A stretch of 64,000 nt of DNA, from NCBI GenBank assembly GCA_965206345.1, contig OZ242211.1, positions 1,338,758-1,402,757 on the forward strand. The letters are read 5' to 3'. A program made the position numbers and the translations under genes. This DNA is from Arenicellales bacterium (GTDB lineage: Bacteria > Pseudomonadota > Gammaproteobacteria > Arenicellales > JAJDZL01). Shown here one piece after another: positions 7,732 through 64,000 of the stretch; positions within the stretch are counted from its first letter, which is position 1; each line of letters begins with the position of its first letter. Below the pieces are notes generated by a model. That model was not told the DNA's origin, made no database searches, and saw only the letters and a list, made by a program, of their open reading frames with translations.

Positions 7732-10632
7732 TCATTGATTGGAATAGTAGTCGTATTTCGACTGAATGTGTTGAGTAAAGGCCCAGGCCTCAGAAAAAGT
7801 CAACCTGTCTTCATCAGGAAAAATTATTCTGGTGTAAAGGCCCTCAGACCGTTCGCTTTTAAGGCGGGTCAATACTCCTTCAAGCTCCTCGCGTGACACT
7901 TGAACTGCAGCAGCCTCACCTGGCAACCTATAGCGAAATACGTTTTCACCTTCAAGTGACTTGTTAAATATCACATCGACAACATAGCGGTTAGCTGGAC
8001 TTCGTGCAGGTCGCAGTAGAATTTGACGCTCCTCCTGAAGTTCGACAATCTCACTTTGAAGCTGTTCAACTTCACCACTTCTCGATGTCAGTGCGGTTTG
8101 CAGATTGGCCAATTCGGTTAGCCGCTGCTGATAGGCCTCACGCAATTCGGCAATTTCGTGGTCGCTTTTCACACCCGTCTCAAATAACTCTTCTTTCTCT
8201 GTCTGCAGGCTTTCAATCTTTTCATCCCGAGACTTTAAATCGGCACTCAATTGCGCCATAACAGTTTGCAGAGTTTCAAACTGCTGTTGCCGATCTGCCT
8301 GCAGCCTGCGACTGTAGTCAAGCTCCCGCAGCAACTCTTCATTTTCGATTGTTATCTGCTGTATCGTCCGCTCAAGTTCCACCAGTTGCTGTTGCTGTTG
8401 GGCTATTCGGTCCTGGTTCTGTGTTCTTTCTGTTAGTAATTGATCTATTTGACTTTTTGACTCATCGCTGGAGGTGTTTAGTGCACTGACTTCGTCACTT
8501 AGTGTGGCAACTTTCGCATTAAGAGAATTGATCTTTTCGTTACGCTCCTGTAGATCCAATCTCAAAGAACTGATCATTTCAACTGCGGACACCATCTGTT
8601 CCTGTAACCGCGCCAGACTACGCTCGTTTTCAATGAATTCCGACTCCATGCGATCAAGCTCAGCTAAACGTTCTGTGTAAAGTGCCTGTAGCGCAACAAG
8701 TTCCTGTTTCTGGCTTTCAATGGTCTGCGTACTTTGTACCTCAGATTCAGTCAGACGAGCGATGTCGGCCTTCTGGCTTTCACTCAAGGCTGCACTGGCC
8801 AGTCGAACCTTCTGTAATTCCTCCAACGCTGTTTTAAGCTCCGACTGAGTTCGAACCAGGTCCCGGTCACTCTCTATAAACTCAGCTTCAACTCGATTCA
8901 ACTCTACAAGCCTTTCATCGTATAGCGCCTGTAGCGATGTAAGTTCCTGCTTCTGACGTTCGATAGTCAGCGCGCTTTGCGTCTCAGACTCAGTCAGTCT
9001 CGCTATGTCAGCCTGCTGAGTCTCGCTCAACGCCGCACTGGTAATTTTCACCTGCTGCAGTTGACTCAACACATCATCTAACTGCGATTTAGTTCGAGCC
9101 AGTTCGCGCTCTCGGTCGAGAAAACTCTCCTCTATTTGATTGAGTTCCGCCAAGCGTTCAGCGTACAGTGCCTGTAGCGATGCTAGCTCCTGCTGCTGAC
9201 GTTCGATAACTAGCGCACTTTGTGTCTCAGACTCAGTCAGTCTCGCTATGTCAGCCTGTTGAGTCTCACTTAGTGCCGCACTTGATAACCTCACTTGCTG
9301 TAAATCTCTCAACGCTCGAACCAATTCGGACTTGGTTCGTACCAGTTCGCGCTCCTGTTCAAGGAATTGCGCTTCTGCTTGAGTGAGTTCTGTAAGCTGT
9401 TCGGCCTGTATAACCTGCAAAGACGCAAGTTCCTGCTGCTGGGATTCAATGATGCGTCCACTCTCCACCTGGCTCACCTCCAAGGCTTCAATTTCGTCCA
9501 GCAATCCGACTTGTGCTTCAGTTAACTGAGCCACCTGGTCTGATTTAGCGGTCAGTTGACGCTCAATATCGGAAATTTCAGCAGCGCGCTGTGTCAATGT
9601 TTCGCGCAACTGTGCCTGTGACTCCTGTTGGCGCTCAATAGTCAACCCCTGTTCCAATCTAACGGCTTCCAATTGCTCCACAACACCCTGCAGCTGCGCA
9701 CTGGCAAGCTTCAAACTCTGGATTTCATCCTCTCGACTGACCAGACCGGTGCGAAGCTCCTCCACCGCCGCAAGACTCTCGCTATATGCCTGTTCCAGTT
9801 CTTCTAACTCAGTCAATCGCTCTGCCAACTCGGCACTCTGCTGCTGAGTAGCCTCAGATAAAGCCGCAATCTGTTCGTCCTTCAAGCCTGATTCAGCGAT
9901 CAAATCTTGAATCTTGACTTCGCTTTCTGCTCTGACCTTTTCAAGTACTGCAATCTGATTGCGCTGTTCTGCTTCAAGTGCCTGTAGATCGGCCAGAGTA
10001 AGACGCAACTCTTCCACTTCGCTACTTCGCTGACTCAAATGCTCTTCCAGAGCCGCCAACTGGTTCTGCTTATCAAGAAGTCCGGCTTGTAGCGCTTCCA
10101 GTTCCACCGTTCGTGATTGAATCAACGAATTCAACTCAGTTATGGTAAGGTTCATCGAACTGACTCGTTCTGTCAGCTGATCGCGCTGGCCTCGAATCTC
10201 CTGAAGGCTTTTGGTTAAGCTACTGACTTCAGCGTCAAGCTGCTGTTGGACCTGATAGAGTTCAGCAGTTTCAATTTCAAGTTCAGATATTCGGGCGCCA
10301 CGTTCTATTGACAATTTCTCAAGTTCTGCCTTTTGAAACTCTGTCAGGTTAAGCTGCTCTTTGGTTTGTTCAACAATTTCAGCAAGATAAGCGGCTCTCT
10401 CACGCAAAGACTCAGTTTCCATCATCGCCTGGCTACGCGCCTCAGAAGCGAGTTCCATATCTTGACCTAACTGGATATTACGCAGCATGAAAATTACCGC
10501 CGCCATGAGAAATATCATCACAATAACCATCATGATGTCAGTGAATGATGGCCAGATACTGTCGTCAGAATGACTGCTTTCAGTGGCGCGGTGAACGCGC
10601 AGGTCAACGAAGCCGCCAGAGTTCCCCGTCAT
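7732..10632 (-). CDS. ExbD/TolR/MotB-like single-pass membrane protein with a giant (~820 aa) coiled-coil stalk and a small C-terminal alpha/beta domain
   Basis: N-terminal TM WPSFTDIMMVIVMIFLMAAV closely resembles the E. coli ExbD TM TPFIDVMLVLLIIFMVAAP, including the essential Asp (D32 here, codon 10537-10539). Residues ~55-870 are heptad-like and Q/E/L-rich, with 81-aa tandem repeats. The last ~95 aa (RYVVDVIFNK...LYTRIIFPDEDRLTFSEAWAFTQHIQ) are reminiscent of the ExbD/TolR periplasmic domain. No OmpA-like peptidoglycan-binding motif is present. Confidence 0.8.
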   Translation of the reverse strand: MTGNSGGFVDLRVHRATESSHSDDSIWPSFTDIMMVIVMIFLMAAVIFMLRNIQLGQDMELASEARSQAMMETESLRERAAYLAEIVEQTKEQLNLTEFQKAELEKLSIERGARISELEIETAELYQVQQQLDAEVSSLTKSLQEIRGQRDQLTERVSSMNLTITELNSLIQSRTVELEALQAGLLDKQNQLAALEEHLSQRSSEVEELRLTLADLQALEAEQRNQIAVLEKVRAESEVKIQDLIAESGLKDEQIAALSEATQQQSAELAERLTELEELEQAYSESLAAVEELRTGLVSREDEIQSLKLASAQLQGVVEQLEAVRLEQGLTIERQQESQAQLRETLTQRAAEISDIERQLTAKSDQVAQLTEAQVGLLDEIEALEVSQVESGRIIESQQQELASLQVIQAEQLTELTQAEAQFLEQERELVRTKSELVRALRDLQQVRLSSAALSETQQADIARLTESETQSALVIERQQQELASLQALYAERLAELNQIEESFLDRERELARTKSQLDDVLSQLQQVKITSAALSETQQADIARLTESETQSALTIERQKQELTSLQALYDERLVELNRVEAEFIESDRDLVRTQSELKTALEELQKVRLASAALSESQKADIARLTESEVQSTQTIESQKQELVALQALYTERLAELDRMESEFIENERSLARLQEQMVSAVEMISSLRLDLQERNEKINSLNAKVATLSDEVSALNTSSDESKSQIDQLLTERTQNQDRIAQQQQQLVELERTIQQITIENEELLRELDYSRRLQADRQQQFETLQTVMAQLSADLKSRDEKIESLQTEKEELFETGVKSDHEIAELREAYQQRLTELANLQTALTSRSGEVEQLQSEIVELQEERQILLRPARSPANRYVVDVIFNKSLEGENVFRYRLPGEAAAVQVSREELEGVLTRLKSERSEGLYTRIIFPDEDRLTFSEAWAFTQHIQSKYDYYSNQ
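8560..9480. repeat. ~3.8 tandem copies of a 243-bp (81-aa) coding repeat inside the coiled-coil gene
   Basis: The string tcaga(c/t)tcagtcag recurs at 8741, 8984 and 9227, an exact 243-nt spacing. The protein unit is LSETQQADIARLTESETQSALVIERQQQELASLQALYAERLAELNQIEESFLDRERELARTKSQLDDVLSQLQQVKITSAA. Confidence 0.9.
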
Positions 10633-10651
10633 AACGGTTGGACCTTAGCTC

Positions 10652-11578
10652 CTAGTCAGAATTGGAATCGTCCCGCAAACGGAAACCAGCTCGCAGAATG
10701 CCCCGAATGTCACTGAGCAAATGCATGTTCTGTTCGTTGAGCTTTTCAAAGTTGTCCAGCATCTCCTTTTGCGCAACACCGAGGGACTGAATTTGATTGA
10801 TGAAGGAATTGAACTTGTCGATCGTCTCAACCGTGCTGGCCAGCATTTCACTCAATGCCTGCTCTGGAGAACGGGTTGCAACCTGATAGCGTGGAATCAT
10901 CTGGGTTGCGGTCTCATGCTCTACCCAGCCCAGGATGTAAGACTGGGTGTCGAGTAATTTAAGGTAAAAATACCCGAACAGAAAATACGACACAATCGCG
11001 GTCATCGTAGTTGAGAGTGCAGTCGACATACCATGAATAACAATATCAATACCGCTTAAACTCTCTGTTGCCGAGATTGCCGTCGATGCGCCAAGCAGTG
11101 CCACTGTCAGCGATACAATCGTACCAAAGACACCCGCCAAAATTAGAATGTTATTGATAAATTTGACAAAACTTGTCTTGCTCGTCTCTCTGGCGAGCAA
11201 CGTTGAAGCCAGCGCATTGTGATTGATTTCGGTTCGTGCTCTGAAAAATCCAGCAATGGTCCAATAACGCTGTCCAATGATGGAATCTTTTGGCAGTACA
11301 TCTCCTATATCTTCTTCTCTTCCGGACGCGACGGCGTTTGAAAAAGCATTTATTGCGATTTCTTCATTCCGGTAGTGAAGAAAAAGATGAATCATCCGCC
11401 CCATCCCAACCAAAAACAATGCCAGAATTGCGCCATTGATCACCCATCCAACTCTGGTGAGTTGATTTTCAATATACAAATCCGACAGATAGTCGAATTG
11501 CCATATAACGGCGACAATAAGAAGAGCCAGAACAACGGCTATCTGGATCAAAATTCGCTCTGATTGGTTTTTTCGCAT
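10652..11578 (-). CDS. MotA/TolQ/ExbB-family proton-channel-like membrane protein
   Basis: Four predicted TM helices. Family-like motifs are ILILAGVFGTIVSL (compare LLGLLGTVxG) and MSTALSTTMTAIVSYFLF (compare ALxTTxxGLxxAIP). There is a ~100-aa C-terminal soluble extension. The gene lies 19 nt upstream of the ExbD-like gene. Confidence 0.7.
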   Translation of the reverse strand: MRKNQSERILIQIAVVLALLIVAVIWQFDYLSDLYIENQLTRVGWVINGAILALFLVGMGRMIHLFLHYRNEEIAINAFSNAVASGREEDIGDVLPKDSIIGQRYWTIAGFFRARTEINHNALASTLLARETSKTSFVKFINNILILAGVFGTIVSLTVALLGASTAISATESLSGIDIVIHGMSTALSTTMTAIVSYFLFGYFYLKLLDTQSYILGWVEHETATQMIPRYQVATRSPEQALSEMLASTVETIDKFNSFINQIQSLGVAQKEMLDNFEKLNEQNMHLLSDIRGILRAGFRLRDDSNSD

Positions 11579-54228: not shown

Positions 54229-54767
54229 GTGAAAATTCGTAACTGAGAACTAGGCTGACAGGAAGTCAGTTAATTTAGAACTACCCCATAGCAGATCACG
54301 TGCGAGAGATGATCCGCGCGGATTCCTAGGGCAAATTCGTGATGGGATCATTTTTGATGTAGCGCAATCTGATCCAGATGTGCCGTCTAATATTCAGATT
54401 ATTGTAGAAGACAACCACGTACGCGGTTGCTGGAATCTGATCTGTTCAAATTTCCGCTCTGTTGGAGCAGGTCCGCTAGCCGAATTGCGGGTATCGTCTC
54501 AGCCAGATCAAGTGCAGTCAACCGACAGTTTTACTGCAACGAAAAATTTAAAACAGCAAGTCGAACCACAACAAAGTAATCCTTCTACCGTCAGTCCTTA
54601 ACTATTTTTCCTAGCGACTTCTGTTCGGAGGACTTATTGGATTTGGAGGTGCAGGTGGAGCCGGTGGAGGTGGCGGTTTTGCCGTGTGTGGTGGTTTTGG
54701 AGACATACCATGATCTCCTGGTTGTCTACTTGGCGGGGGATTTGGTGCTTTTACCATGACTCTCTCG

Positions 54768-55382
54768 TTAATTTTGGCTTTGTTCGGATATCGGGACAAA
54801 TTCAACAATTTGAACATCAATCACCGGAACCAGTAAAGAAATTACACTTTCCCTGTATTTACTGTTGGTATTCATTTTACTCTCTTCTATCCATTCTGCT
54901 TCTTCCAAGTGAAAGTGCCCCTCTGCAGGTCTGCTTGGCCATTCGGTCGGCCAACCATAAACTCTTCGACCGTCATACAAGTGAAGCACTACGTACGATC
55001 TTTCGTGCTGGGAAAATGCGGAATACCACTCAGAAGAGTATGTGTTTTCTTTTGTGATTTTTAGTATTCGAAAAAGTCTATGTGGCCAATCGTGATTGAT
55101 GCAAATAGCAGCGAATATTCCCAAAACAATTGCAAAAAGTGCCGCCAACCATGCCAGACTGCCGTATGTATCTTGTTGAGTTGGCGCTATAGATGGAACC
55201 ATCGCCTGTACTATCGGCATTATTGACTGAACAATAAATGTAAAAATTAAGGCGAGGATTGTCCTTTCGAATGAGTTAGGTTTTGAATGGGAGATCAGCG
55301 AATAGAATATTGCGGCAGCTATGAATCCAGGTAGCAGAAACAATAGAAGTTCAAGCAGCGTGCTGGGGATTTGTGAAAACAT
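54768..55382 (-). CDS. hypothetical membrane protein (N-terminal 3-4 TM + soluble C-terminal domain)
   Basis: Hydrophobic N-terminal half and a W/Y-rich C-terminal domain (YSSEWYSAF...VYGWPTEWPS). No family recognised with confidence. Lies in a low-density, AT-richer patch. Confidence 0.45.
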   Translation of the reverse strand: MFSQIPSTLLELLLFLLPGFIAAAIFYSLISHSKPNSFERTILALIFTFIVQSIMPIVQAMVPSIAPTQQDTYGSLAWLAALFAIVLGIFAAICINHDWPHRLFRILKITKENTYSSEWYSAFSQHERSYVVLHLYDGRRVYGWPTEWPSRPAEGHFHLEEAEWIEESKMNTNSKYRESVISLLVPVIDVQIVEFVPISEQSQN

Positions 55383-55579
55383 AGAGAGTTACAAAAAAAT
55401 TATTCAGGTCCGAGAAAAGTAAACATTCTGATGTGTTTTACGATTATTTTACAGCCGTCATCCCAAGTTTATAATTCCCAAAACCAAGGACTCTTTTGTT
55501 GTAGCGGAAAATTGTAATATTGGATGATTCTCTGTATAAGATACTGTTCAAACCGAATATCAATTGAGGCTTGGAAATA

Positions 55580-56308
55580 ATGCCAAGGAAGGGTTTCTCG
55601 TTGTACGCTCCGTTTGCAGCAGTGGGCTGTTGCCTTTTTCTTTTTTCCTCTTCCGCTAGTACCAAAGATCTAATGGAGTGTGTTCAATCAGTTGACCATA
55701 GCTTTGAAGGACAGCTACTTACTGAAGAAGAAAAGTATCAAATTCTGCTGCAGCGATTGGCAGATGACCAGATTCGCTTTGAAGAATGCCTCCAAATCAA
55801 CATCAGTGCCGCCAGGGACGGCGGTGGTGCGTCAGGAGGTGGAAGCGGCGGTACAAATTCAAGTGCAACAGCTGGTGGAGGTCAACTCAAAGGACAGAGT
55901 ACAGATGGCAGTCAGACCTTTGCTACTGCGTTGGAATCAATTTCTGCATCGGGAGTTCAGGGTACGGAATTGCCGGAGCCTGAAAATCAGATTACGGGAT
56001 TGGGCGAACCCGAAAATGAACCTGCCGAATTGTCTGATTTCGAAAATCAGGACGGACTTTCTCCGGCAATATTGAATGAAATTACACCAGGTGGTGTAGC
56101 AAGCGGTGGAAATAGAGTGCTTTCAAACGGCATGCAACCAGAGGAGCTGGAAGTTTCAGACAACGATGCAATTTTACTGAGCCAAATACTGGCGGCCGCT
56201 AACGCTGAACAGGACCCTGACAAGAAAAAGAAACTGATGGAAGAGTACCGTAGAATGAGATCAGGCAATAGCGGTGAAACCGCCGTAGCTGCAGGAGGGC
56301 AGCAATGA
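55580..56308 (+). CDS. secreted Gly/Ser-rich acidic protein, unknown function (first gene of the candidate operon)
   Basis: ATG 55580 gives MPRKGFSLYAPFAAVGCCLFLFSSSAS, a signal peptide. There is a low-complexity GGGASGGGSGG tract. The stop overlaps the next start (ATGA at 56305-56308). Confidence 0.5.
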   Translation: MPRKGFSLYAPFAAVGCCLFLFSSSASTKDLMECVQSVDHSFEGQLLTEEEKYQILLQRLADDQIRFEECLQINISAARDGGGASGGGSGGTNSSATAGGGQLKGQSTDGSQTFATALESISASGVQGTELPEPENQITGLGEPENEPAELSDFENQDGLSPAILNEITPGGVASGGNRVLSNGMQPEELEVSDNDAILLSQILAAANAEQDPDKKKKLMEEYRRMRSGNSGETAVAAGGQQ

Positions 56309-57540
56309 TGCTAACGAGAATTACTTCAATCGCACTACTGACAATTTTTTCGCTGTACCTTGCCGCTTGTGGCGGAACATCCGCGGTAGTTAGCTCCTCG
56401 ACCGCGCCAAAAACACCGTTTGGGATCAGCTTGGAACATTCACCCAATAATCAAGGTTGGAGCGAACAATATACAGGTGTGCGCCTTGATGTCATTGTGC
56501 CGTTGTTTGACCCCAACATACCCTCTGATCCTGACGACTATGAAAAGGAAGGCATTTGGCCGGAATTGCGTCGCACCGAAGCCATTCGCTTCTCCGTGAG
56601 CCTGTCGGATGAAATTAAAGCAACTGGTGCATTTAACGGCGTGCGCGTAACGCCGGACGTTGCGGTTAGCGGCGATCTTTTTGTTTCGGGCAAAATCCTC
56701 GAATCAAATGGCGAAGATATCAAGATCGAAGTGCAAGTGCATGACATCAGCGGCAAAAGATGGATGAAGCGGACTTATAAACATCGCGTGAAGGAGTATC
56801 ACTGGCAAAGTAGTCGCACCAGTGCTACGGATCCGTACAATCCAGTGTTCAAAAAGGCTGCCACCGACATTGTGAAACTTCTGAAGAAAAAATCTTCTGA
56901 AGAACTTGCTGATATCCGAGCGACTTCTCAGCTTCAGTTTGCTGCCACTCTTTCACCCGACGCATTTGCACAACATCTCGAAGTCAAAAACAATCGAGTA
57001 AAACTCGTTTCATTACCAGCAGTGAATGATCCATTACTGGTTCGAGCCAATGGAATGCGAGTGCAGGATGCGCTTTTCATGGATGATATGCAAAAACACT
57101 ACACAGGGTTTGTCCGTACAACCAATGCCAGTTACATTAACTGGCAGCAGCATAGTATGGAAGCTGCAAAGGCCCAGCGTGAAGCGGAAGGAAGGGCCAA
57201 TGCCCAGGCTATTGGTGGATTTTTGCTGCTTCTTGGTGCTGCGGCAATTGCTGACGACAGTAGCGGCGACACCGGCGCCGCTCTGGCAGCAACCGCCGTG
57301 GCAGTTGGTGGCATTTCAATGCTGCAAAACAGCTTTGCCGCAAATAGTGAGAGTAAATACCATCACGATATTCTGGTAGAGCATGGCGAATCGTTTAATC
57401 GCGAGGTTGAACCCAAAGTGATCCTGGTCGAAGGACATAAACTTGAAATTCGAGGCAGTGTTGTCACCCAATATCAAAAGTGGCGGGAAACTCTAAAACT
57501 GCTCCACGAACATGAATCTCCACCGCCGGTGCAACTCTAA
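56305..57540 (+). CDS. lipoprotein with a C-terminal hydrophobic Gly/Ala-rich segment, unknown function
   Basis: Lipobox LYLAACGG. A beta-rich middle part (DLFVSGKILESNGEDIKIEVQVHDISGKRW). A hydrophobic stretch, AIGGFLLLLGAAAIA...ALAATAVAVGGISML. Confidence 0.6.
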   Translation: MMLTRITSIALLTIFSLYLAACGGTSAVVSSSTAPKTPFGISLEHSPNNQGWSEQYTGVRLDVIVPLFDPNIPSDPDDYEKEGIWPELRRTEAIRFSVSLSDEIKATGAFNGVRVTPDVAVSGDLFVSGKILESNGEDIKIEVQVHDISGKRWMKRTYKHRVKEYHWQSSRTSATDPYNPVFKKAATDIVKLLKKKSSEELADIRATSQLQFAATLSPDAFAQHLEVKNNRVKLVSLPAVNDPLLVRANGMRVQDALFMDDMQKHYTGFVRTTNASYINWQQHSMEAAKAQREAEGRANAQAIGGFLLLLGAAAIADDSSGDTGAALAATAVAVGGISMLQNSFAANSESKYHHDILVEHGESFNREVEPKVILVEGHKLEIRGSVVTQYQKWRETLKLLHEHESPPPVQL

Positions 57541-57611
57541 TCGGTCATCGTGCAAGCGACGCTCAGGATAAGTTCGTGATGCGGTAACTTGTAAATCAGA
57601 TCTGAGGTAAG

Positions 57612-59108
57612 ATGCCTGTCATGCACAGCAGCCAATCAGCAGGTGTCAAATTACTGAAACACGTTGTTCCCACCGTATTGAGCTTTTTCCTGTTCTGTGG
57701 TTTAGCAGATTCAGTCAGTTCCGATTTGCAGGTTGTTTCATCAATCACGCAGCCAAACGTTGAAAGCAAAACCAGCGACCAAGTTTTTCGCGACGATAAC
57801 CGCACAGATCACTCGTTAAGTCAGGACGATGCGATAGTCATTGGAGTTATCACGCAAACTTCATCTGACAGTCAACAATCAGAATCTAAACACTACAAAC
57901 AAATGCTTGCCCGCGTGGATGAAGCATTGACAGCGTGGGAAATAAGACGGTCAATTGTTCCAGGTTTTGATCAAAGTCTTGAGTTCATTCTTACCAGTCG
58001 GGGTAAGGCAGAAGCGGCTTTTTTTGACGTCGATTATCCGGAAGCGATTCGTCTCATAGAGCAGGTACTTGCTGAAGTCGAATACATTTTTCAGCTGGAG
58101 GAAGATTTCTATTACATCAATCTGAAAATCGCAATCAGTGCGTTTGAGGCGGAAGATGTCGAAGGCGCACAGGACGCCATCACTTTGGCACTCGCCTTGC
58201 GCCCCAACAACAAAGAGGCAGAATTTTGGCAGCAGCAGATTATTCAGTTGCCGGAATTGATTGCTGCCAGGCAGGTTGCCATTGAAGCACGCAATGAAGG
58301 TCGATTGCAGGATGAAATTGATGCACTTTATCGTGTTCTGAAAATTAAGCCTAACGAAGAAGAGGTGAAGACACGCATTGAAGCAGCAAATCGCGAGTTA
58401 CAGGACCAACGATTCAAACGCGCAATTGACGAAGGGCGTCAAGCACTGTCCAATCAGGATGTGGAAAAGGCGAGAAATGCACTAGCAAACGCTCAACGAT
58501 TTAAACCATCGCATCCGGAAATCTCGCGACTGAAACAAAGTATTGAAGAACTGGTCCGTGATCTTGAAGTGGCAAAACTGATTGAGGCTGCTGCAAATGG
58601 CGCAATTCAGGATGACTGGCTCGCTGTTCAGCAGAGCCTTGAGCTGGCGTTAAAGCTTAACCCGAATCTGAGTGATGCGATCGAGGGCCGAATTCTAGCC
58701 AAGAGCATCATTGACGCACAGTCTAAATTTGATGACTATTTGGCCAGATCACATCGGCTGAGTTCCAAAAATATTGTCGATGCCGTACGTAAGGAACTAG
58801 AGGAAGCCCAAGTGTTGCTGAAATACAGTCCACGCTTGCGAACAGCTGTCAGTGAACTTGAAGTTGAAGTGGTTAAGTGGCAAACAGAAGTGCCTGTGCG
58901 CGTGATCTCTGATGGCAAAACGCACATCATAGTGCGCAGGGTTGGCATTATCGGAGCAGTTCGCGATCGGGAGATTATGCTCAAACCCGGAACCTACCGA
59001 TTTGAGGGAACAAGGAGAGGGTATCGAAACAAGTTGGTGGAGGTAAAAGTTCCACCGTATGCTAATGAAGTTACCGAAGTAACGGTTATCTGCGATGAGC
59101 GGGTTTAA
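57612..59108 (+). CDS. secreted TPR-like/helical-repeat protein with a C-terminal PEGA-like beta domain
   Basis: Signal peptide (VVPTVLSFFLFCGLADS). Helical repeats (AITLALALRPNNKEAEFW..., ALELALKLNPNLSDAIEG). C-terminal VRVISDGKTHIIVRRVG...LKPGTYRFEGTRRGYRNKLVEVKV. 14-nt overlap with the next gene. Confidence 0.65.
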   Translation: MPVMHSSQSAGVKLLKHVVPTVLSFFLFCGLADSVSSDLQVVSSITQPNVESKTSDQVFRDDNRTDHSLSQDDAIVIGVITQTSSDSQQSESKHYKQMLARVDEALTAWEIRRSIVPGFDQSLEFILTSRGKAEAAFFDVDYPEAIRLIEQVLAEVEYIFQLEEDFYYINLKIAISAFEAEDVEGAQDAITLALALRPNNKEAEFWQQQIIQLPELIAARQVAIEARNEGRLQDEIDALYRVLKIKPNEEEVKTRIEAANRELQDQRFKRAIDEGRQALSNQDVEKARNALANAQRFKPSHPEISRLKQSIEELVRDLEVAKLIEAAANGAIQDDWLAVQQSLELALKLNPNLSDAIEGRILAKSIIDAQSKFDDYLARSHRLSSKNIVDAVRKELEEAQVLLKYSPRLRTAVSELEVEVVKWQTEVPVRVISDGKTHIIVRRVGIIGAVRDREIMLKPGTYRFEGTRRGYRNKLVEVKVPPYANEVTEVTVICDERV

Positions 59109-61116
59109 GGACCTTTTAGACAAGGCACAGCGCGCCCGTCGTCGTCGAATGATGCTGGGCATTGGTGGCGTAGTACTGATTCTATTGATTTCGGCGGGCG
59201 TCTATATCGGCACGGCCGTCATTGATCGAGTGTTTGTCGCTGTTGCACCAAATGAAGCGGTCGACATTGCACAATTGGAAATTCTTGATGGTACTGGCTG
59301 GATTTGGAAAGATGAAATTATTGCAGTAAGAGGCCCATTGAAACTACAGGTGTCTGCTGACGGATTCAAACAGGAAGTCTTGACGGTCGGTGATGCGACA
59401 TGGAGACGAGGGCGACTTGATGTGGTGCTAAAGCCACTGCCAGCTACAGTCACAGCAACAACCAAGCCAGAATCGGATGAAGTTCGCTGGTATTTGGATG
59501 GTACGTTGGTATCGGTAGCGGCACAGTTAACTGTCGATGTACCTGCGGGTCAGCACACAATTGAAGCCAGACATCCACATTTTGAACCAACCAGTCAATC
59601 GGTAACTCTTAAGCGCGGCGAGTCGTTTCAGTTGAGTCTTGATCTGAAACCAGTGATGGGTCTAGTTGAGATTACCTCTGCGCCGAGCGGGGCAGAAGTG
59701 TCACTTGATTCTGAAGCGATCGGAAAAGCTCCGCTGCACTTGGAATTGCAAGGCGGTGAGTATGAAATTGCGCTTTCACTCGCTGATCACGATCTGAGAA
59801 AGGATTCGTTTGTCATTTCGTCAAACAATCCTGCTGTGAGCCGGCACTATGAACTGGCAATGAGTAACCGCGAAGTGACATTTATGTTGACGCCGGCTGA
59901 TGGGTCATTGACAGTGGGTGGCAGTTCGGTTGCATCCCGAGAATTCGCAAGAGTTTCGCTACCCGTCAATTCCCGCCAAACCGCCACGTATTCGAAGCCT
60001 GGTTTCAGAACTCAAGAAATAGAATTCGAGGTGAACTCGAACTTTGACAACCAAATCAAAATAGAACTTCAGCCCGTTTACGGAATTGTGGAAGTCAGAT
60101 CAAACCCAACAGCTGATGTCTCTCACAATGGCAAAATCATTGGAAGAACTCCGGTTCTGGTTCGTATGCAGACGCTTCCTCAAACAATTACTGTCAGCCA
60201 GAAAAAATTCTTGCCTGAGACTCGCACGATTACGCCCGTTGAAGGCACAACCCGTGTTTTGGAGGTCAATCTTGTGTCGGAACAAGAACACCGACTAAAA
60301 ACCTCTCCGGATACGTATGTGAACAGCATTGGAATGAAATTCAAACTGTTCAGAGAGGCGGATTACTTCACTATGGGCTCAAAGCCCGGTGAATTAAACA
60401 GCAGACCGAACGAGTTTTATCGTCAGGTCCAGTTGAAAAAACCGTTCTACGCCGGCGTGCACGAAGTAACGATCGAAGCGTTTCAAACATTTATTGGCAG
60501 CAGTTCGACTCCAACCGGCGGTAATCGTCCGATTACTGGAATCAGTTGGAAGGAGGCAGCGCAGTTCAGCAACTGGCTCAGTGAAAAGGAGGGGCTGAGA
60601 ACTGTGTATAGGTTCACGGGTGACGAGTACCTGGGTAGCGATTCGACTGCGGATGGGTACCGGATGTTGACGGAAGCTGAATGGGAGTGGTTGGCCAGAA
60701 AGGCGGGCCGTAATCAGCAAACCATCTTCCCTTGGGGTAACGAGACAATCATTCCTCAAAACTCGGGCAATCTGGCTGATACGACGGCTAAGGGTTCGTT
60801 AGCTGTCTTCATTCCGCAATACGACGACGGCCAGGCAGGCGTGAGTGCGACAGGATTGTTTAAACCTAATCCCGCAGGCATTCATGACTTGACTGGCAAT
60901 GTGAGTGAGTGGACGCATGATGCGTATGACCACACTGTTCCCAGTGGCGATCAGATTGAGCTCGACCCATTCGACACCTCCAATGCCACATATCACACGA
61001 TCAAGGGGTCAAACTGGGCATCGGGTGAAGCAAGTGAACTTCGGGTCGCTTACAGAACGGGCAGTTCAGCAGGCAACGAGAGAACTGGGTTTCGACTTGC
61101 TCGTTATCTGTACTAG
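59095..61116 (+). CDS. single-pass membrane protein with tandem PEGA domains and a C-terminal FGE-sulfatase (SUMF1) domain lacking the catalytic cysteines
   Basis: TM MLGIGGVVLILLISAGVYIGTAV. PEGA units (GLVEITSAPSGAEVSLDSEAIGKAPLHLEL; GIVEVRSNPTADVSHNGKIIGRTPVLVRM). FGE-domain blocks (GMKFKLF..., HEVTIEAFQTF, PITGISWKEAAQFSNWLS, GYRMLTEAEWEWLAR, HDLTGNVSEWTHD, IKGSNWAS...TGFRLARYL). There is no Cys in the region equivalent to the FGE active site. Confidence 0.8.
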   Translation: MSGFKDLLDKAQRARRRRMMLGIGGVVLILLISAGVYIGTAVIDRVFVAVAPNEAVDIAQLEILDGTGWIWKDEIIAVRGPLKLQVSADGFKQEVLTVGDATWRRGRLDVVLKPLPATVTATTKPESDEVRWYLDGTLVSVAAQLTVDVPAGQHTIEARHPHFEPTSQSVTLKRGESFQLSLDLKPVMGLVEITSAPSGAEVSLDSEAIGKAPLHLELQGGEYEIALSLADHDLRKDSFVISSNNPAVSRHYELAMSNREVTFMLTPADGSLTVGGSSVASREFARVSLPVNSRQTATYSKPGFRTQEIEFEVNSNFDNQIKIELQPVYGIVEVRSNPTADVSHNGKIIGRTPVLVRMQTLPQTITVSQKKFLPETRTITPVEGTTRVLEVNLVSEQEHRLKTSPDTYVNSIGMKFKLFREADYFTMGSKPGELNSRPNEFYRQVQLKKPFYAGVHEVTIEAFQTFIGSSSTPTGGNRPITGISWKEAAQFSNWLSEKEGLRTVYRFTGDEYLGSDSTADGYRMLTEAEWEWLARKAGRNQQTIFPWGNETIIPQNSGNLADTTAKGSLAVFIPQYDDGQAGVSATGLFKPNPAGIHDLTGNVSEWTHDAYDHTVPSGDQIELDPFDTSNATYHTIKGSNWASGEASELRVAYRTGSSAGNERTGFRLARYLY

Positions 61117-61220
61117 GCTACGACAACTGGAGGGCGGTACAATGAATGGAGTTGAAAACCACATCCGAAAGTCAGTCCATTGACTAAATTCAGACAATTC
61201 AAAGTAGGAGTGTGCTCAAA

Positions 61221-61388
61221 ATGCTAAGACTAATGGTCGGAAATAAGCACTTCAGGGTGGTGCTGGCGGTGGCGCTTGCTGTTGCGTTGATTGTGTTTGC
61301 ATTTGGATATCACAAAGCTGGTACCGCGCAGAACACAGGACCGCAGATCAGTTTGAATACACCAGTCAGTTTCCCCGGGGATATTTAG
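61221..61388 (+). CDS. small single-TM protein (55 aa), not in the ORF track
   Basis: My translation gives MLRLMVGNKHFRVVLAVALAVALIVFAFGYHKAGTAQNTGPQISLNTPVSFPGDI. AGGAG lies 10 nt upstream. Its TAG stop directly abuts the TTG start of the ExbB-like gene. Confidence 0.4.
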   Translation: MLRLMVGNKHFRVVLAVALAVALIVFAFGYHKAGTAQNTGPQISLNTPVSFPGDI

Positions 61389-62144
61389 TTGAGAGAAGCA
61401 CTGCGTGGTCTGATAATTCTGGCTATTGCGGCAGCGTCGGTCCACACGCTTTATGTACAGTTAATTCGCCCCAGAGCGGAAATTCTAATTGAAGCTGGTG
61501 TGGCAGCCGGGCAGTATGCACCGCGAGATTGGGTTGTAATTCTGAAAGACTGGGAGCAGGAGATTTGCCTGATTCTTGCAATCTACTGTATTGTGGAAAT
61601 AATGATCCGTCTCTACAAACTTTCAAAAGAACAGTATCTTTTCGAAGTTGATTTTGTCGGTCAGGTTGAGTCGGGTGAGACCGATCTCAAGAGCACTTTG
61701 GAGGACCTTGAGACTTTGCCTCGCTCTGTGGGAAAATCTCAGTTGGTAGAGACGCTAAAGGCTTCCATTCGGCGGTATCGGATTACGTCTGATGTGCAGA
61801 ATACCTCCGATGCAATTCAAACCAGTGTTGATGCGGTAGCCATGCGACTTGAAGCAGATAACACAATGCTGCGCTACATGATTTGGGCGATTCCATCAAT
61901 TGGATTTATTGGCACAGTCCGTGGTATTGGGCAGGCGCTTTCGCAAGCCGACCAGGCGTTATCTGGAGACATTTCAGAAATGACTGCCAGCCTTGGCATC
62001 GCGTTTAACTCAACATTCGTCGCTCTGGTGATCAGCATTTTCCTGATGCTGCTTCTCCATTCGCTTCAGCGTGCACAGGACCGGCGCCTGGTCGACATAC
62101 AAAGTTATTGCGAAGAATTTCTCCTGAATCGAATCAGTCAGTAA
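61389..62144 (+). CDS. MotA/TolQ/ExbB-family proton-channel-like membrane protein
   Basis: Family motifs WAIPSIGFIGTVRGIGQAL (compare PxLGLLGTVxGm) and LGIAFNSTFVALVISIFLMLL (compare ALxTTxxGLxxAIP). 251 aa. TTG start from the ORF track. Confidence 0.75.
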   Translation: MREALRGLIILAIAAASVHTLYVQLIRPRAEILIEAGVAAGQYAPRDWVVILKDWEQEICLILAIYCIVEIMIRLYKLSKEQYLFEVDFVGQVESGETDLKSTLEDLETLPRSVGKSQLVETLKASIRRYRITSDVQNTSDAIQTSVDAVAMRLEADNTMLRYMIWAIPSIGFIGTVRGIGQALSQADQALSGDISEMTASLGIAFNSTFVALVISIFLMLLLHSLQRAQDRRLVDIQSYCEEFLLNRISQ

Positions 62145-62160
62145 TTATTGGGATATCTCC

Positions 62161-63228
62161 ATGAAAAGGAGACGACGCGCTCTCGGCAACAACCTTGCAT
62201 TCCTAGATGTGATGGCATGTGGTTTAGGTGCGGCGGTATTGGTTTTTCTGATTGTCAAGCATCACACAGGTGCTGAGCCGATGATTGAAGAGGCCGTATC
62301 TGACGACGGTCAAATTTTGACCATGCTTCGACAGTCCGAAGCAATGCTGGAAGATCAGGTTGAAGCGACTGCCCGACAAATTGAGAATTTGCAGACTCAA
62401 AACGAAGATCGCGAAAATCAGATCGAAGCTCACAAAGCCAAACAGGCTGAGTTGGAGGATTTGCAATTGCAGATCAAAGAGCTGAAGACGAAAAACTCAG
62501 GACTGAAGAAAGAGGTGGTCCGTATTCGTCCGCAGCAAACTGCAGATGTCATTCAGAACAAACAGACAGGCGAAGAGGACTACCTGATTGGGCTCAAAGT
62601 GGAGGGCCGACGAATTGCCATTGTTTTAGATCACAGCGCATCAATGACTGACGAAAAACTGGTTGACATTGTTACACGTAAACTTGGATCAGATGCTGAT
62701 AAACAAAAAGGACCGAAGTGGAATCGCACAGTTCGGGTGGCGCGCTGGCTGTTGGCTAGACTACCGAAGTCCAGTGAGGTAGCAGTCATCGGGTTCAATG
62801 AGAAGGCTAAGTTACTGAATAAAGGTGCCTGGGCTCACAGCAGCGACGCTACTCAGATCAACGGGCTTTTGGCTGAAATTGTCAGCCTTGTTCCGACTGG
62901 TGGAACCAACCTGGAAGCAGGATTGCGTGAGCTGAGAAATTTGAGACCGCAAGCGACCGATATCTATATTGTCACGGATGGACTACCCACGCGAAGCGTA
63001 TCTTCACCAAACCCGATATCCCGCTGTCGAAAAAATGCGACAAAAGTGAGTGGAAAGTGTCGTGTCGTTTTGTTTAACACAGCCATCAAGCATTCGATAC
63101 CTGCCAGAAGCAAAATTAACGTAATTCTGCTTCCGGTCGAAGGTGATCCTGATGCTGGACCACAATTTTGGGGTTTGACTGCCGCGACTGGTGGTTTGCT
63201 GCTGGTTCCAGCGGTGGGTTGGCCATGA
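62161..63228 (+). CDS. ExbD/TolR-like TM helix + coiled coil + von Willebrand factor A (MIDAS) domain protein
   Basis: N-terminus RRRRALGNNLAFLDVMACGLGAAVLVFLIV (compare TolR IVPLLDVLLVLLLIF, conserved Asp = D16, codon 62206-62208). Coiled coil from ~50-125. vWA motifs: IAIVLDHSASM (DxSxS), TGGTNLEAGL and IYIVTDGLPT. Confidence 0.8.
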   Translation: MKRRRRALGNNLAFLDVMACGLGAAVLVFLIVKHHTGAEPMIEEAVSDDGQILTMLRQSEAMLEDQVEATARQIENLQTQNEDRENQIEAHKAKQAELEDLQLQIKELKTKNSGLKKEVVRIRPQQTADVIQNKQTGEEDYLIGLKVEGRRIAIVLDHSASMTDEKLVDIVTRKLGSDADKQKGPKWNRTVRVARWLLARLPKSSEVAVIGFNEKAKLLNKGAWAHSSDATQINGLLAEIVSLVPTGGTNLEAGLRELRNLRPQATDIYIVTDGLPTRSVSSPNPISRCRKNATKVSGKCRVVLFNTAIKHSIPARSKINVILLPVEGDPDAGPQFWGLTAATGGLLLVPAVGWP

Positions 63229-64000
63229 GAAATCGCCGCCGAAGTGGTGAGGGTGAGAGCCTCGCTTTTCTTGATATTGTCACCTGTGGCTTTGGCGCGA
63301 TAGTACTGCTGCTGATCATTACTAAACCGGTACCGGACCACACGGACTTTGCAGAGCAGCAGCGAGACTTAAGTGGTGTTATTGAAACTGGGGGACAGCA
63401 GGTAATCGCATTGCAGGCAAAGTTGCAAAGCCTCCTGACTGAACTTGCGGCAATTCCCGATCCTAGTGAGCATTCAGTTGATCAAGGGCTGAATCAGTCC
63501 CTTTCTGAAGCACGAGATGCGGTTGAGGAATTAAATAGTAGCAACGAGGCGTTGGAGTTAGTCAAAGAGACTCTGATCGCAGCTACGATCACTCAGACAA
63601 CCACACCACAGCAACGTGACCCGGAGGTAGGTGGTATTCCGGTTGACAGTGAGTACGTGATATTTGTAATAGACACCTCAGGCAGCATGATTGAAATCTG
63701 GAATACTGTCATTGATACCATGAACCGAATCATAGATATCCATCCCAAGGTTAAAGGTTTTCAGGTAATTAATGACGACGGCAACTACCTGTTCAAATCA
63801 ACAAAAGGCAAGTGGATACCGGATACCTCAAAGTCCCGAAAGAGGGTCAAAGATGCGTTGAGACACTGGCGAAGCTTTTCAGACAGCAATCCCGTTCAAG
63901 GTTTGGAATCCGCACTTCGTACTTATGGAAGAAAACACGAAAAGTTATCCATATACGTCCTCGGGGATGAATTCACAGGTTCATCTTATGATGAAGTGAT
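63225..64000 (+). CDS. paralogous ExbD/TolR-like TM + coiled coil + vWA domain protein (3'-truncated by the window end)
   Basis: Not in the ORF track because it runs off the end. My translation gives MRNRRRSGEGESLAFLDIVTCGFGAIVLLLII (D17), then a coiled coil, then YVIFVIDTSGSM (DxSxS, D150 at 63672-63674) ... SIYVLGDEFTG. The ATG overlaps the upstream TGA (ATGA). Confidence 0.8.
   Translation, partial: MRNRRRSGEGESLAFLDIVTCGFGAIVLLLIITKPVPDHTDFAEQQRDLSGVIETGGQQVIALQAKLQSLLTELAAIPDPSEHSVDQGLNQSLSEARDAVEELNSSNEALELVKETLIAATITQTTTPQQRDPEVGGIPVDSEYVIFVIDTSGSMIEIWNTVIDTMNRIIDIHPKVKGFQVINDDGNYLFKSTKGKWIPDTSKSRKRVKDALRHWRSFSDSNPVQGLESALRTYGRKHEKLSIYVLGDEFTGSSYDEV

Follow-up and report, generated by a model that had tools for sequence, protein, structure and literature searches.

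An eight-gene operon pairing a TolQ-like channel subunit with two vWA proteins is conserved across phyla and probably encodes an ion-driven envelope machine

The 5:2 ion-driven motors power flagella, TonB-dependent uptake, Tol-Pal maintenance of the outer membrane (OM), gliding, type IX secretion (T9SS) and Zorya defence, and each new coupling partner found for such a motor has revealed new envelope biology. A 64,000-nucleotide stretch of DNA from an Arenicellales bacterium (assembly GCA_965206345.1, contig OZ242211.1, positions 1,338,758 to 1,402,757; hereafter the window) carries at its right end, in 55571–64000, eight open reading frames (ORFs) on one strand, g1 to g8. These genes probably encode a single envelope machine, a trans-envelope force transducer driven by the proton motive force (PMF) and built around a motor of the MotAB/ExbBD/TolQR 5:2 type, in which vWA heads bearing metal-ion-dependent adhesion sites (MIDAS) would replace the usual plug protein. 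New here are the invariant eight-gene composition of the system, the nature of its partner proteins and its variants. The eight genes are as follows (aa, amino acids; TM, transmembrane).

55580..56308, plus strand: g1, 242 aa (245 aa if the TTG at 55571 is used), exported, with a signal peptide
56305..57540, plus strand: g2, 411-aa lipoprotein with lipobox LAAC, Cys22 and Gly at +2
57612..59108, plus strand: g3, 498 aa, with an N-terminal signal or signal-anchor, TPRs at ~130–370 and a C-terminal PEGA-like beta-sandwich at ~425–498
59095..61116, plus strand: g4, 673 aa, with a 19-aa cytoplasmic tail and TM segment 20–43 as inner-membrane anchor
61221..61388, plus strand: g5, 55-aa micro-ORF (58 aa if the GTG at 61212 is used) with a basic N-terminus and a hydrophobic segment
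61389..62144, plus strand: g6, 251-aa MotA/TolQ/ExbB-family channel subunit
62161..63228, plus strand: g7, 355-aa vWA protein 1
63225..64000, plus strand, cut by the window end: g8, vWA protein 2 (full length 313 aa in locus L001, 10052–10993)

The junctions between these genes are tight. ATGA overlaps join g1 to g2 (56305–56308) and g7 to g8 (63225–63228), g3 and g4 overlap by 14 nt (59095–59108), the stop of g5 abuts the start of g6 (61388/61389), and gaps of 71 nt and 16 nt separate g2 from g3 and g6 from g7. An earlier reading of the letters of the window (hereafter the sequence-only reading) had listed the same eight same-strand genes and the same junctions, and the ORF coordinates agree with it exactly. 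All eight products have an envelope-targeting feature (signal peptide, lipobox or TM anchor). The ORF of g8 runs past the window end at 64000, and the sequence-only reading had the operon continuing beyond that point. The metagenome contig L001, which is 97% identical to the window across 55486–64000, places a 224-nt gap and then unrelated genes (DUF169, PEPCK) after g8. The operon therefore comprises eight genes, of which the second vWA gene is the last.

Relatives of g7 were sought to assess how widely this arrangement is distributed. A search of 5.8 billion proteins returned at least 948; among 1.84 billion cluster representatives (clusters at 50% identity), 754 matched at E<=1e-3 and 214 at E<=1e-30, and the matched representatives are nearly all full-length, at ~350 aa. 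In contigs representing one genome per species, at least 591 stretches encode a g7 relative, which places the family in at least ~590 species-representative genomes. The best 80 of these stretches were taken with 10-kb flanks and, together with L001, form the 81 genome loci counted below. g7 and g8 are adjacent in all 81, and the order g1-g2-g3-g4-(g5)-g6-g7-g8 is collinear on one strand in at least 62. Most of the remaining loci are shortened by contig ends and a few have local rearrangements; the block is strictly collinear and on one strand wherever a locus is long enough to display it. The association of these genes, which the sequence-only reading had drawn from one genome, holds across phyla.

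The carriers belong to the Gamma-, Alpha-, Beta- (Nitrosomonadaceae) and Zetaproteobacteria, the Desulfobacterota and the Nitrospirales, and include Arenicellales, Sneathiella, Methylophaga, Mariprofundus, Desulfocapsaceae, Nitrosomonadaceae, Nitrospirales and Magnetovibrio. Magnetovibrio blakemorei, Aestuariispira insulae and Denitrobaculum tricleocarpae are isolates. The closest genomes among the matches listed are Arenicellales metagenome-assembled genomes (MAGs) of the Gammaproteobacteria, at 93–97% protein identity. The eight genes recur, a 43-aa ORF among them, at an Arenicella locus with a vWA protein of only 33% identity. Beyond close relatives, no conserved flanking gene was found. 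No flanking family is present in more than 10 of the 81 loci and those 10 are close relatives, so that the conserved unit consists of exactly these eight genes.

The channel subunit is recognised by its family profile. g6 matches PF01618 (MotA_ExbB) at 5.3e-16, with 59 bits against a cutoff of 22.9; the NCBIfam models for TolQ (1e-4) and ExbB (5e-4) are also matched, both far under their cutoffs. Two motifs, GFIGTVRGIG (61902–61931) and AFNSTFVAL (62001–62027), contain threonines T176 and T209, which are invariant and align with T145 and T178 of E. coli TolQ. The gene is adjacent to or near the vWA genes in 80 of the 81 genome loci, and likewise in metagenome loci.

The two genes that follow encode proteins of one architecture, a single N-terminal TM helix followed by a coiled coil and a vWA domain. 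In g7 the trans-pore-type helix spans residues 12–32 (62194–62256) and contains D16 (62206–62208). An AlphaFold2 (AF2) model (pLDDT 74.9) displays a TM segment at 13–34, one 75-residue helix at 48–122, a linker and a vWA fold at 150–350. The vWA assignment is supported by Pfam VWA_2 (2.2e-8, 35.1 bits against a cutoff of 27) and by Foldseek, in which the best PDB matches of the model are vWA domains (CLCA1 VWA, TMt 0.74; BatB and an aerotolerance protein as well). Among PDB sequences, profile searches of g6 and g7 returned marginal matches at most. g8 has its helix at 13–33 (63261–63323) with D17 at 63273–63275, then a coiled-coil region and a vWA domain that matches VWA_2 under the gathering score (1.6e-4, 22.7 bits). 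Both paralogues had been credited with a MIDAS. That of g7 is complete (D157-x-S159-x-S161 at 62629–62643, T249 and D273); g8 conserves D150-x-S152-x-S154 (63672–63686) and D248, and its MIDAS Thr position is not kept as Thr.

Profile comparison of g7 with g8 (hhalign 99.4%, E 4e-21, 265 columns, 22% identity) indicates that they are true paralogues, highly diverged. In BLASTP the two align through the N-terminal helix alone (31 residues, 55% identity), which implies selection on the helix itself. The Asp aligns with D23 of TolR (FLDVM or FLDIV versus LLDVL). D16 of g7 and D17 of g8 are at least 95% conserved, are invariant in alignments A1 and A2, and are kept in a subfamily that is 30% identical. 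The same level of conservation (at least 95%, or invariant) was found for D157, S159, S161, T249 and D273 of g7, for D150, S152, S154 and D248 of g8, for T176 and T209 of g6, and for Cys22 of g2. The expectation that the TM Asp and the MIDAS residues would be conserved among homologues is thus borne out, and the channel threonines are conserved with them.

A conventional partner for the channel was looked for as well. None of the eight proteins matches PF02472 (ExbD/TolR) or MotB in Pfam, and the periplasmic part of g7 and g8 is a coiled coil plus vWA domain and not an ExbD/TolR domain. A phmmer search with E. coli TolR found no TolR-like ORF in the window or in ~160 related loci, being a single-sequence search of limited sensitivity. 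In the window, phmmer with E. coli TolQ, TolR, TolA, TolB, Pal and CpoB gave no match, in agreement with the sequence-only reading, which had noted the lack of TolA and Pal. g7 and g8 would be the only possible plug partners of g6 in the operon, a reading of the sequences that survived every test run.

The core of this arrangement has been predicted before. A study in Mol Biol Evol (PMC12204202, June 2025, section 8, Fig. 4c,d) describes 'TPH-vWA' (trans-pore-helix vWA) proteins, tethered by a transmembrane helix (TMH) and encoded beside tolQ homologues without tolR or exbD. There, the vWA proteins occur mostly as heterologous pairs, co-occur tightly with the tolQ homologues and are found mainly in Proteobacteria. 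Their trans-pore helix is TolR/ExbD-like with a proton-binding Asp, which AlphaFold 3 (AF3) puts inside the Thr ring of a TolQ-like pentamer; the reference organism is Idiomarina loihiensis, and the function is stated as not known. The present operon agrees with that family in every feature compared, namely a tolQ-like gene without tolR or exbD, an adjacent heterologous vWA pair, the Asp helix and the conserved channel Thr. The five partner genes g1–g5 are added here; the main text of PMC12204202 and its supplements, as far as available, make no mention of PEGA, FGE/sulfatase, lipoprotein or micro-ORF partners. The cluster names of g7 relatives read only 'VWA domain-containing protein' or 'hypothetical' and come from MAGs, and no Idiomarina member was identified that way.

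It follows that the central idea of the sequence-only reading, which had called the machine undescribed and had known of no channel paired with vWA heads, was already in print as an in-silico prediction. Its architecture and motor hypothesis hold; its claims to an undescribed machine and to a continuation past 64000 do not, and the ExbD/TolR likeness of its helix goes no further than the motif. Beyond PMC12204202, the literature search found no description of this operon. Kaur et al. 2020 (PMC7159879) treats FGS/vWA conflict systems and not this operon. What had been a prediction of two components becomes, with the present results, a defined list of eight parts whose contacts can be tested.

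Of the domains that had been listed for the operon, the FGE, channel and vWA domains were recovered by Pfam, the TPRs by profile search and the lipobox by its motif; PEGA in g4 occupies three stretches and not two, and g3 is only PEGA-like. The first partner, g1, was found in 66 of the 81 genome loci, its absences being mostly truncated contigs. It has two invariant cysteines (C37 and C73 in the 245-aa numbering), a disordered Gly/Ser-rich middle and a conserved C-terminal helix (…DND..L.AQIR.AA..E.DP…LWNEYRKYKG). It has no Pfam, NCBIfam or PDB match, and Pfam on 18 homologues gave scattered chance matches only.

The lipoprotein g2 retains Cys22 throughout its alignment, and the lipobox expression is matched by 56 of 65 homologues. 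Its AF2 model (pLDDT 77.7, pTM 0.73) has an alpha/beta domain at 60–235 and a long helical hairpin at 243–365, whose hydrophobic Gly/Ala-rich tip (305–340) is modelled with low confidence. Neither Pfam nor PDB sequences, profile search included, gave a match. In the PDB, Foldseek ranks highest PelC, a lipoprotein that forms rings (E 2.4e-4, TMt 0.52–0.57), the TolB N-domain and LptE, and the modelled domain bears a marginal resemblance to this fold. In g3, the TPRs are weak on the single sequence and clear by profile (1.6e-11 against a PDB consensus TPR), and TPR_2 matches 11 of 18 homologues. The C-terminus of g3 is similar to repeat 2 of g4 (hhalign probability 87%, P 4e-6), and PEGA is not called there by Pfam in any of the 18 homologues.

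g4 was found in 78 of the 81 genome loci. Its anchor is followed by about five PEGA/CarboxypepD_reg-like beta-sandwich repeats (~350 residues) and by a head with the FGE-sulfatase fold at 425–670. In Pfam, FGE-sulfatase is matched at 2.4e-30, PEGA at 1e-23 in three stretches and CarboxypepD_reg-like in one. Catalytic FGE (formylglycine-generating enzyme) has an active-site pair of cysteines that binds Cu(I). Residues 425–673 of g4 contain no Cys at all and a 71-sequence alignment has no conserved Cys column, so that g4 is not a catalytic FGE and this role was rejected. From its sequence, the head is best read as a binding module of the C-type-lectin-like kind.

The micro-ORF g5 has no Pfam match, and ORFs of this size are easily missed by annotation pipelines. 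A small ORF with a g5-type ending occupies the g4–g6 gap of 108 of 118 loci, with its stop 0–1 nt from the g6 start. The ending of g5 is …ISLNxPxSFP(V/G)DI-stop, given as …I-S-L-N-S-P-x-S-F-P-(V/G)-D-I for the ORFs of these loci. Across 73 non-redundant genome loci, L(-11), F(-5), P(-4), D(-2) and I(-1) never vary, and every one of these loci also has a heuristic small-x-small cleavage site; the N-terminal half is variable and signal-sequence-like. g5 may give rise to an exported peptide of ~17 aa, the median length of the predicted mature form.

How such a machine would work can be outlined as follows. g6, a member of the MotA/TolQ/ExbB family, would form a TolQ-like pentamer, and the N-terminal Asp helices of g7 and g8 would enter it as a heterodimeric plug in place of TolR/ExbD. 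We infer this plug role because an ExbD, TolR or MotB gene is lacking in the operon, the Asp and Thr residues are conserved, and an AF3 model of relatives has been published. Proton flow would rotate the pentamer relative to the dimer, and a ~10-nm coiled-coil stalk, the 75-residue helix of the g7 model, would move two vWA heads, one with a full MIDAS (g7) and one with a degenerate MIDAS (g8). The heads would bind, through the MIDAS metal, an acidic residue of one or more co-encoded periplasmic partners. Candidates are the Cys-free FGE/lectin-like head of g4, which ~five beta-sandwiches of the PEGA type would hold clear of the inner membrane; g3, with its TPRs and PEGA-like domain; the presumably exported g5 peptide, which ends in …FP(V/G)DI; g1, which contains a disulfide and acidic motifs; and the OM lipoprotein g2, with its PelC/LptE/TolB-N-like, ring- or plug-forming fold. 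Force would reach an OM assembly containing g2, and the result would be PMF-dependent mechanical work at the OM or the cell wall, following the logic of Tol-Pal or of the T9SS PorLM-PorKN motor. Tethering, remodelling, export or signalling are possible outputs.

A more specific form of this model can be offered only tentatively, and we regard it as possible but doubtful. It holds that the operon is a complete, self-contained and functionally new PMF-driven machine in which the 5:2 motor moves integrin-like MIDAS heads that grip the ~17-residue g5 peptide, the Cys-free FGE-lectin head of g4 on its PEGA stilts, or both, and so pass force to a PelC/LptE-like OM lipoprotein assembly. If true, it would constitute a principle of force transduction distinct from TonB/TolA boxes, from peptidoglycan anchoring by MotB and from GldM/PorM, with a cellular role outside Tol, Ton, flagella, gliding and T9SS.

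Several results weigh against the force-transducer interpretation. g6 is a very divergent member of the MotA/ExbB family, its profile reaching only E 0.15 against PDB MotA. g7 and g8 have no PF02472 match at Pfam E<=0.1, and the hhalign comparison of their N-termini with E. coli TolR (P 0.08 and 0.04 over 11–12 columns) is not significant. The ExbD/TolR-type helix of the sequence-only reading is accordingly kept as a single TM segment with a conserved Asp; judged by sequence, it is ExbD/TolR-like in motif and position only, and homology is not demonstrable. The fold matches of g2 are marginal (Foldseek, best E 2e-4, TMq ~0.2). Invariant synteny is the sole ground on which the vWA heads may be thought to engage the PEGA, FGE, TPR and lipoprotein partners. 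The operon encodes no OM beta-barrel or obvious substrate.

The insignificant likeness to TolR is also what one would expect if g6 were an orphan TolQ/ExbB paralogue that uses an ExbD/TolR encoded elsewhere, with the vWA proteins as membrane-anchored scaffold or adhesion proteins of the Bat kind. TPR and vWA proteins co-occur in Bat operons, and BatB and the aerotolerance protein are among the many vWA domains that the g7 fold matches. Such an arrangement is quite improbable, given that an Asp is held at the same depth of the single TM helix in two divergent paralogues, at the conservation described above, across phyla and in the 30%-identical subfamily, and that the helix alone, by the BLASTP comparison, appears to be under selection. 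g6 is also regularly found beside g7 and g8, and the neighbourhood has no conserved MoxR or DUF58 gene. Membership in the Bat/MoxR-vWA group was rejected on similar grounds, as Pfam finds no MoxR or DUF58 domain in the eight genes and none is conserved in the flanks. Bat operons (MoxR-DUF58-BatA-E) do share TM-anchored vWA and TPR proteins in one operon with the present system, along with the match of the g7 model to BatB structures; they differ in having the MoxR ATPase and DUF58, and in lacking a MotA/ExbB channel and an Asp helix of this type.

The force transducer that we favour can be set beside the characterised 5:2 motors. With Tol-Pal and Ton it shares the PF01618 channel, two TM threonines, an Asp-helix partner and an operon with periplasmic, TPR and OM-lipoprotein genes; further similarities are a g2 domain that resembles the TolB N-domain and, in some distant variants, an added gene of the OmpA/Pal type. 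It differs in that the plugs are a coiled coil plus vWA domain, and in that there is neither a TolA/TonB third subunit with an SHLS motif nor a TolB beta-propeller. With the PorLM-PorKN (GldLM-GldKN) motor of T9SS and gliding, it shares an inner-membrane motor of the 5:2 type, a dimeric partner that spans the periplasm and a co-encoded protein of the FGE-sulfatase fold. The best NCBIfam match of g4 is in fact GldK/PorK (TIGR03525), at 70.7 bits against a cutoff of 350, which excludes g4 from that family. In contrast to PorK/GldK, g4 is TM-anchored in the inner membrane, has no lipobox and is not an OM lipoprotein, and neither PorN/GldN nor SprA is encoded. The hosts are Proteobacteria, Desulfobacterota and Nitrospirota, which are not known to have T9SS. 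T9SS membership was rejected, the TIGR03525 match falling below its cutoff and g4 having no lipoprotein signal. When all eight proteins were scanned with NCBIfam and PADLOC, the locus fell into no named system, and no Tol, Ton, Agl, Bat or Zorya profile claims it; the view that the locus lies outside the characterised Tol, Ton, Agl-Glt and Bat systems is upheld.

A distant subfamily, represented by metagenome loci L083–L162 at 30–35% identity, retains g1–g4, g6, g7 and g8 and displays informative variants. In 42 of 54 distant loci, g6 and g7 are separated by the gene of a cytoplasmic protein of ~470 aa that has FHA (Pfam 3e-13) as its C-terminal domain, and the g4 of this subfamily has an N-terminal cytoplasmic FHA-like extension (hhalign 96%, P 4e-9). 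An OmpA-family peptidoglycan-binding protein with a glycine zipper follows g8 in 9 of the 40 distant loci that have enough downstream sequence (Pfam OmpA to 2.6e-16) and in none of 72 loci of the window's own subfamily. Through these variants the system is linked with the cell wall and OM and, in some lineages, with phospho-threonine signalling. Examples are:

L090, 8596–10005: inserted FHA protein
L090, 5009–7462: PEGA-FGE protein
L090, 12177–12932: OmpA-family protein
L097, 11684–12436: OmpA-family protein
L119, 12217–12972: OmpA-family protein (six more loci carry one)

By eye, the inserted FHA protein seemed to have an Hsp70/actin-like N-terminal domain, which neither Pfam nor a PDB sequence search confirmed. 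In L083 and L100 g6 stands after g8 and not before g7, so that the order of the motor module is not absolutely fixed in the distant subfamily.

The FHA variants bear on a second alternative, in which the operon encodes an energised trans-envelope signalling device. The vWA and FGE-like heads would sense the state of the periplasm or OM, which g4 and FHA/phospho-threonine partners would relay to the cytoplasm, in the manner of the threonine-phosphorylation pathway of type VI secretion (T6SS) or of TonB-dependent FecA-FecR signalling. In the T6SS pathway (TagQRST-PpkA-PppA-Fha1), TagR carries an FGE-sulfatase domain with the FGE fold and is held by the OM lipoprotein TagQ. An FGE-fold protein, an OM lipoprotein, a periplasmic vWA domain (in PpkA) and, in the distant variants, FHA are common to that pathway and the present system. 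TagR acts on the extracellular vWA sensor domain of PpkA (PMC3224232). This pathway offers a possible precedent for the pairing of vWA with the FGE fold. Both the inserted FHA protein and the FHA-like domain gained by g4 would suit such a device. It is nonetheless unlikely. The window's version has no FHA domain and g4 has a cytoplasmic tail of only 19 aa; the flanks of the operon contain no conserved kinase, phosphatase or transcription factor; and a passive sensor needs no conserved set of channel Asp and Thr residues. The present operon also differs from the T6SS pathway in having no kinase, phosphatase or T6SS genes and in the fusion of its vWA domains to a channel-plug helix and not to a kinase.

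Upstream of 55486 the window and L001 are unrelated, and the left boundary of the stretch they have in common therefore lies there. L001 carries DctPQ transporter genes on that side (1–2312); in the window, 54380–55486 contains a 204-aa membrane ORF on the minus strand (54768–55382) and a ketopantoate-reductase-like gene. Complete divergence next to a stretch that is otherwise 97% identical suggests an indel or rearrangement breakpoint just 5' of the operon's promoter region. One promoter candidate was noted:

55448..55475, plus strand: sigma-70-like candidate, TTTACA-16-TATAAT, matching 11 of 12 consensus positions, ~100 nt 5' of g1

This candidate is a consensus match only, such sites in the region being no commoner than in shuffled sequence, and it falls just outside the stretch common to the window and L001.

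That the upstream flank differs between strains 97% identical would fit a Zorya-like anti-phage or conflict system with g6 as a MotA-like sensor, and two further observations lean the same way. g6 has a weak partial match to ZorA in PADLOC (E 2.7e-4 over 84 residues), and conflict systems repeatedly contain FGE/FGS and vWA domains (PMC7159879). We consider a defence role highly improbable. There is no further PADLOC match, and no nuclease, NTPase or other effector is encoded; all products are envelope proteins; and no copy of the operon was found in IMG/VR viral contigs. The single invariant gene order across phyla is unlike the modular shuffling of defence islands. Zorya membership was rejected on the partial nature of the ZorA match and the lack of any other.

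The window contains a second candidate MotA/MotB-like pair, on the minus strand at 7732–11578. A 308-aa membrane protein (10652–11578, minus strand) has a weak MotA_ExbB match (E 0.005, under gathering). Its neighbour, a 966-aa protein (7732–10632, minus strand), has an N-terminal MotB/TolR-like helix with an Asp (…SFTDIMMVIVMIFLMAAV…), followed by an internally repetitive coiled coil of ~800 residues. This stretch explains the odd AT skew (-0.20) at 8001–10000.

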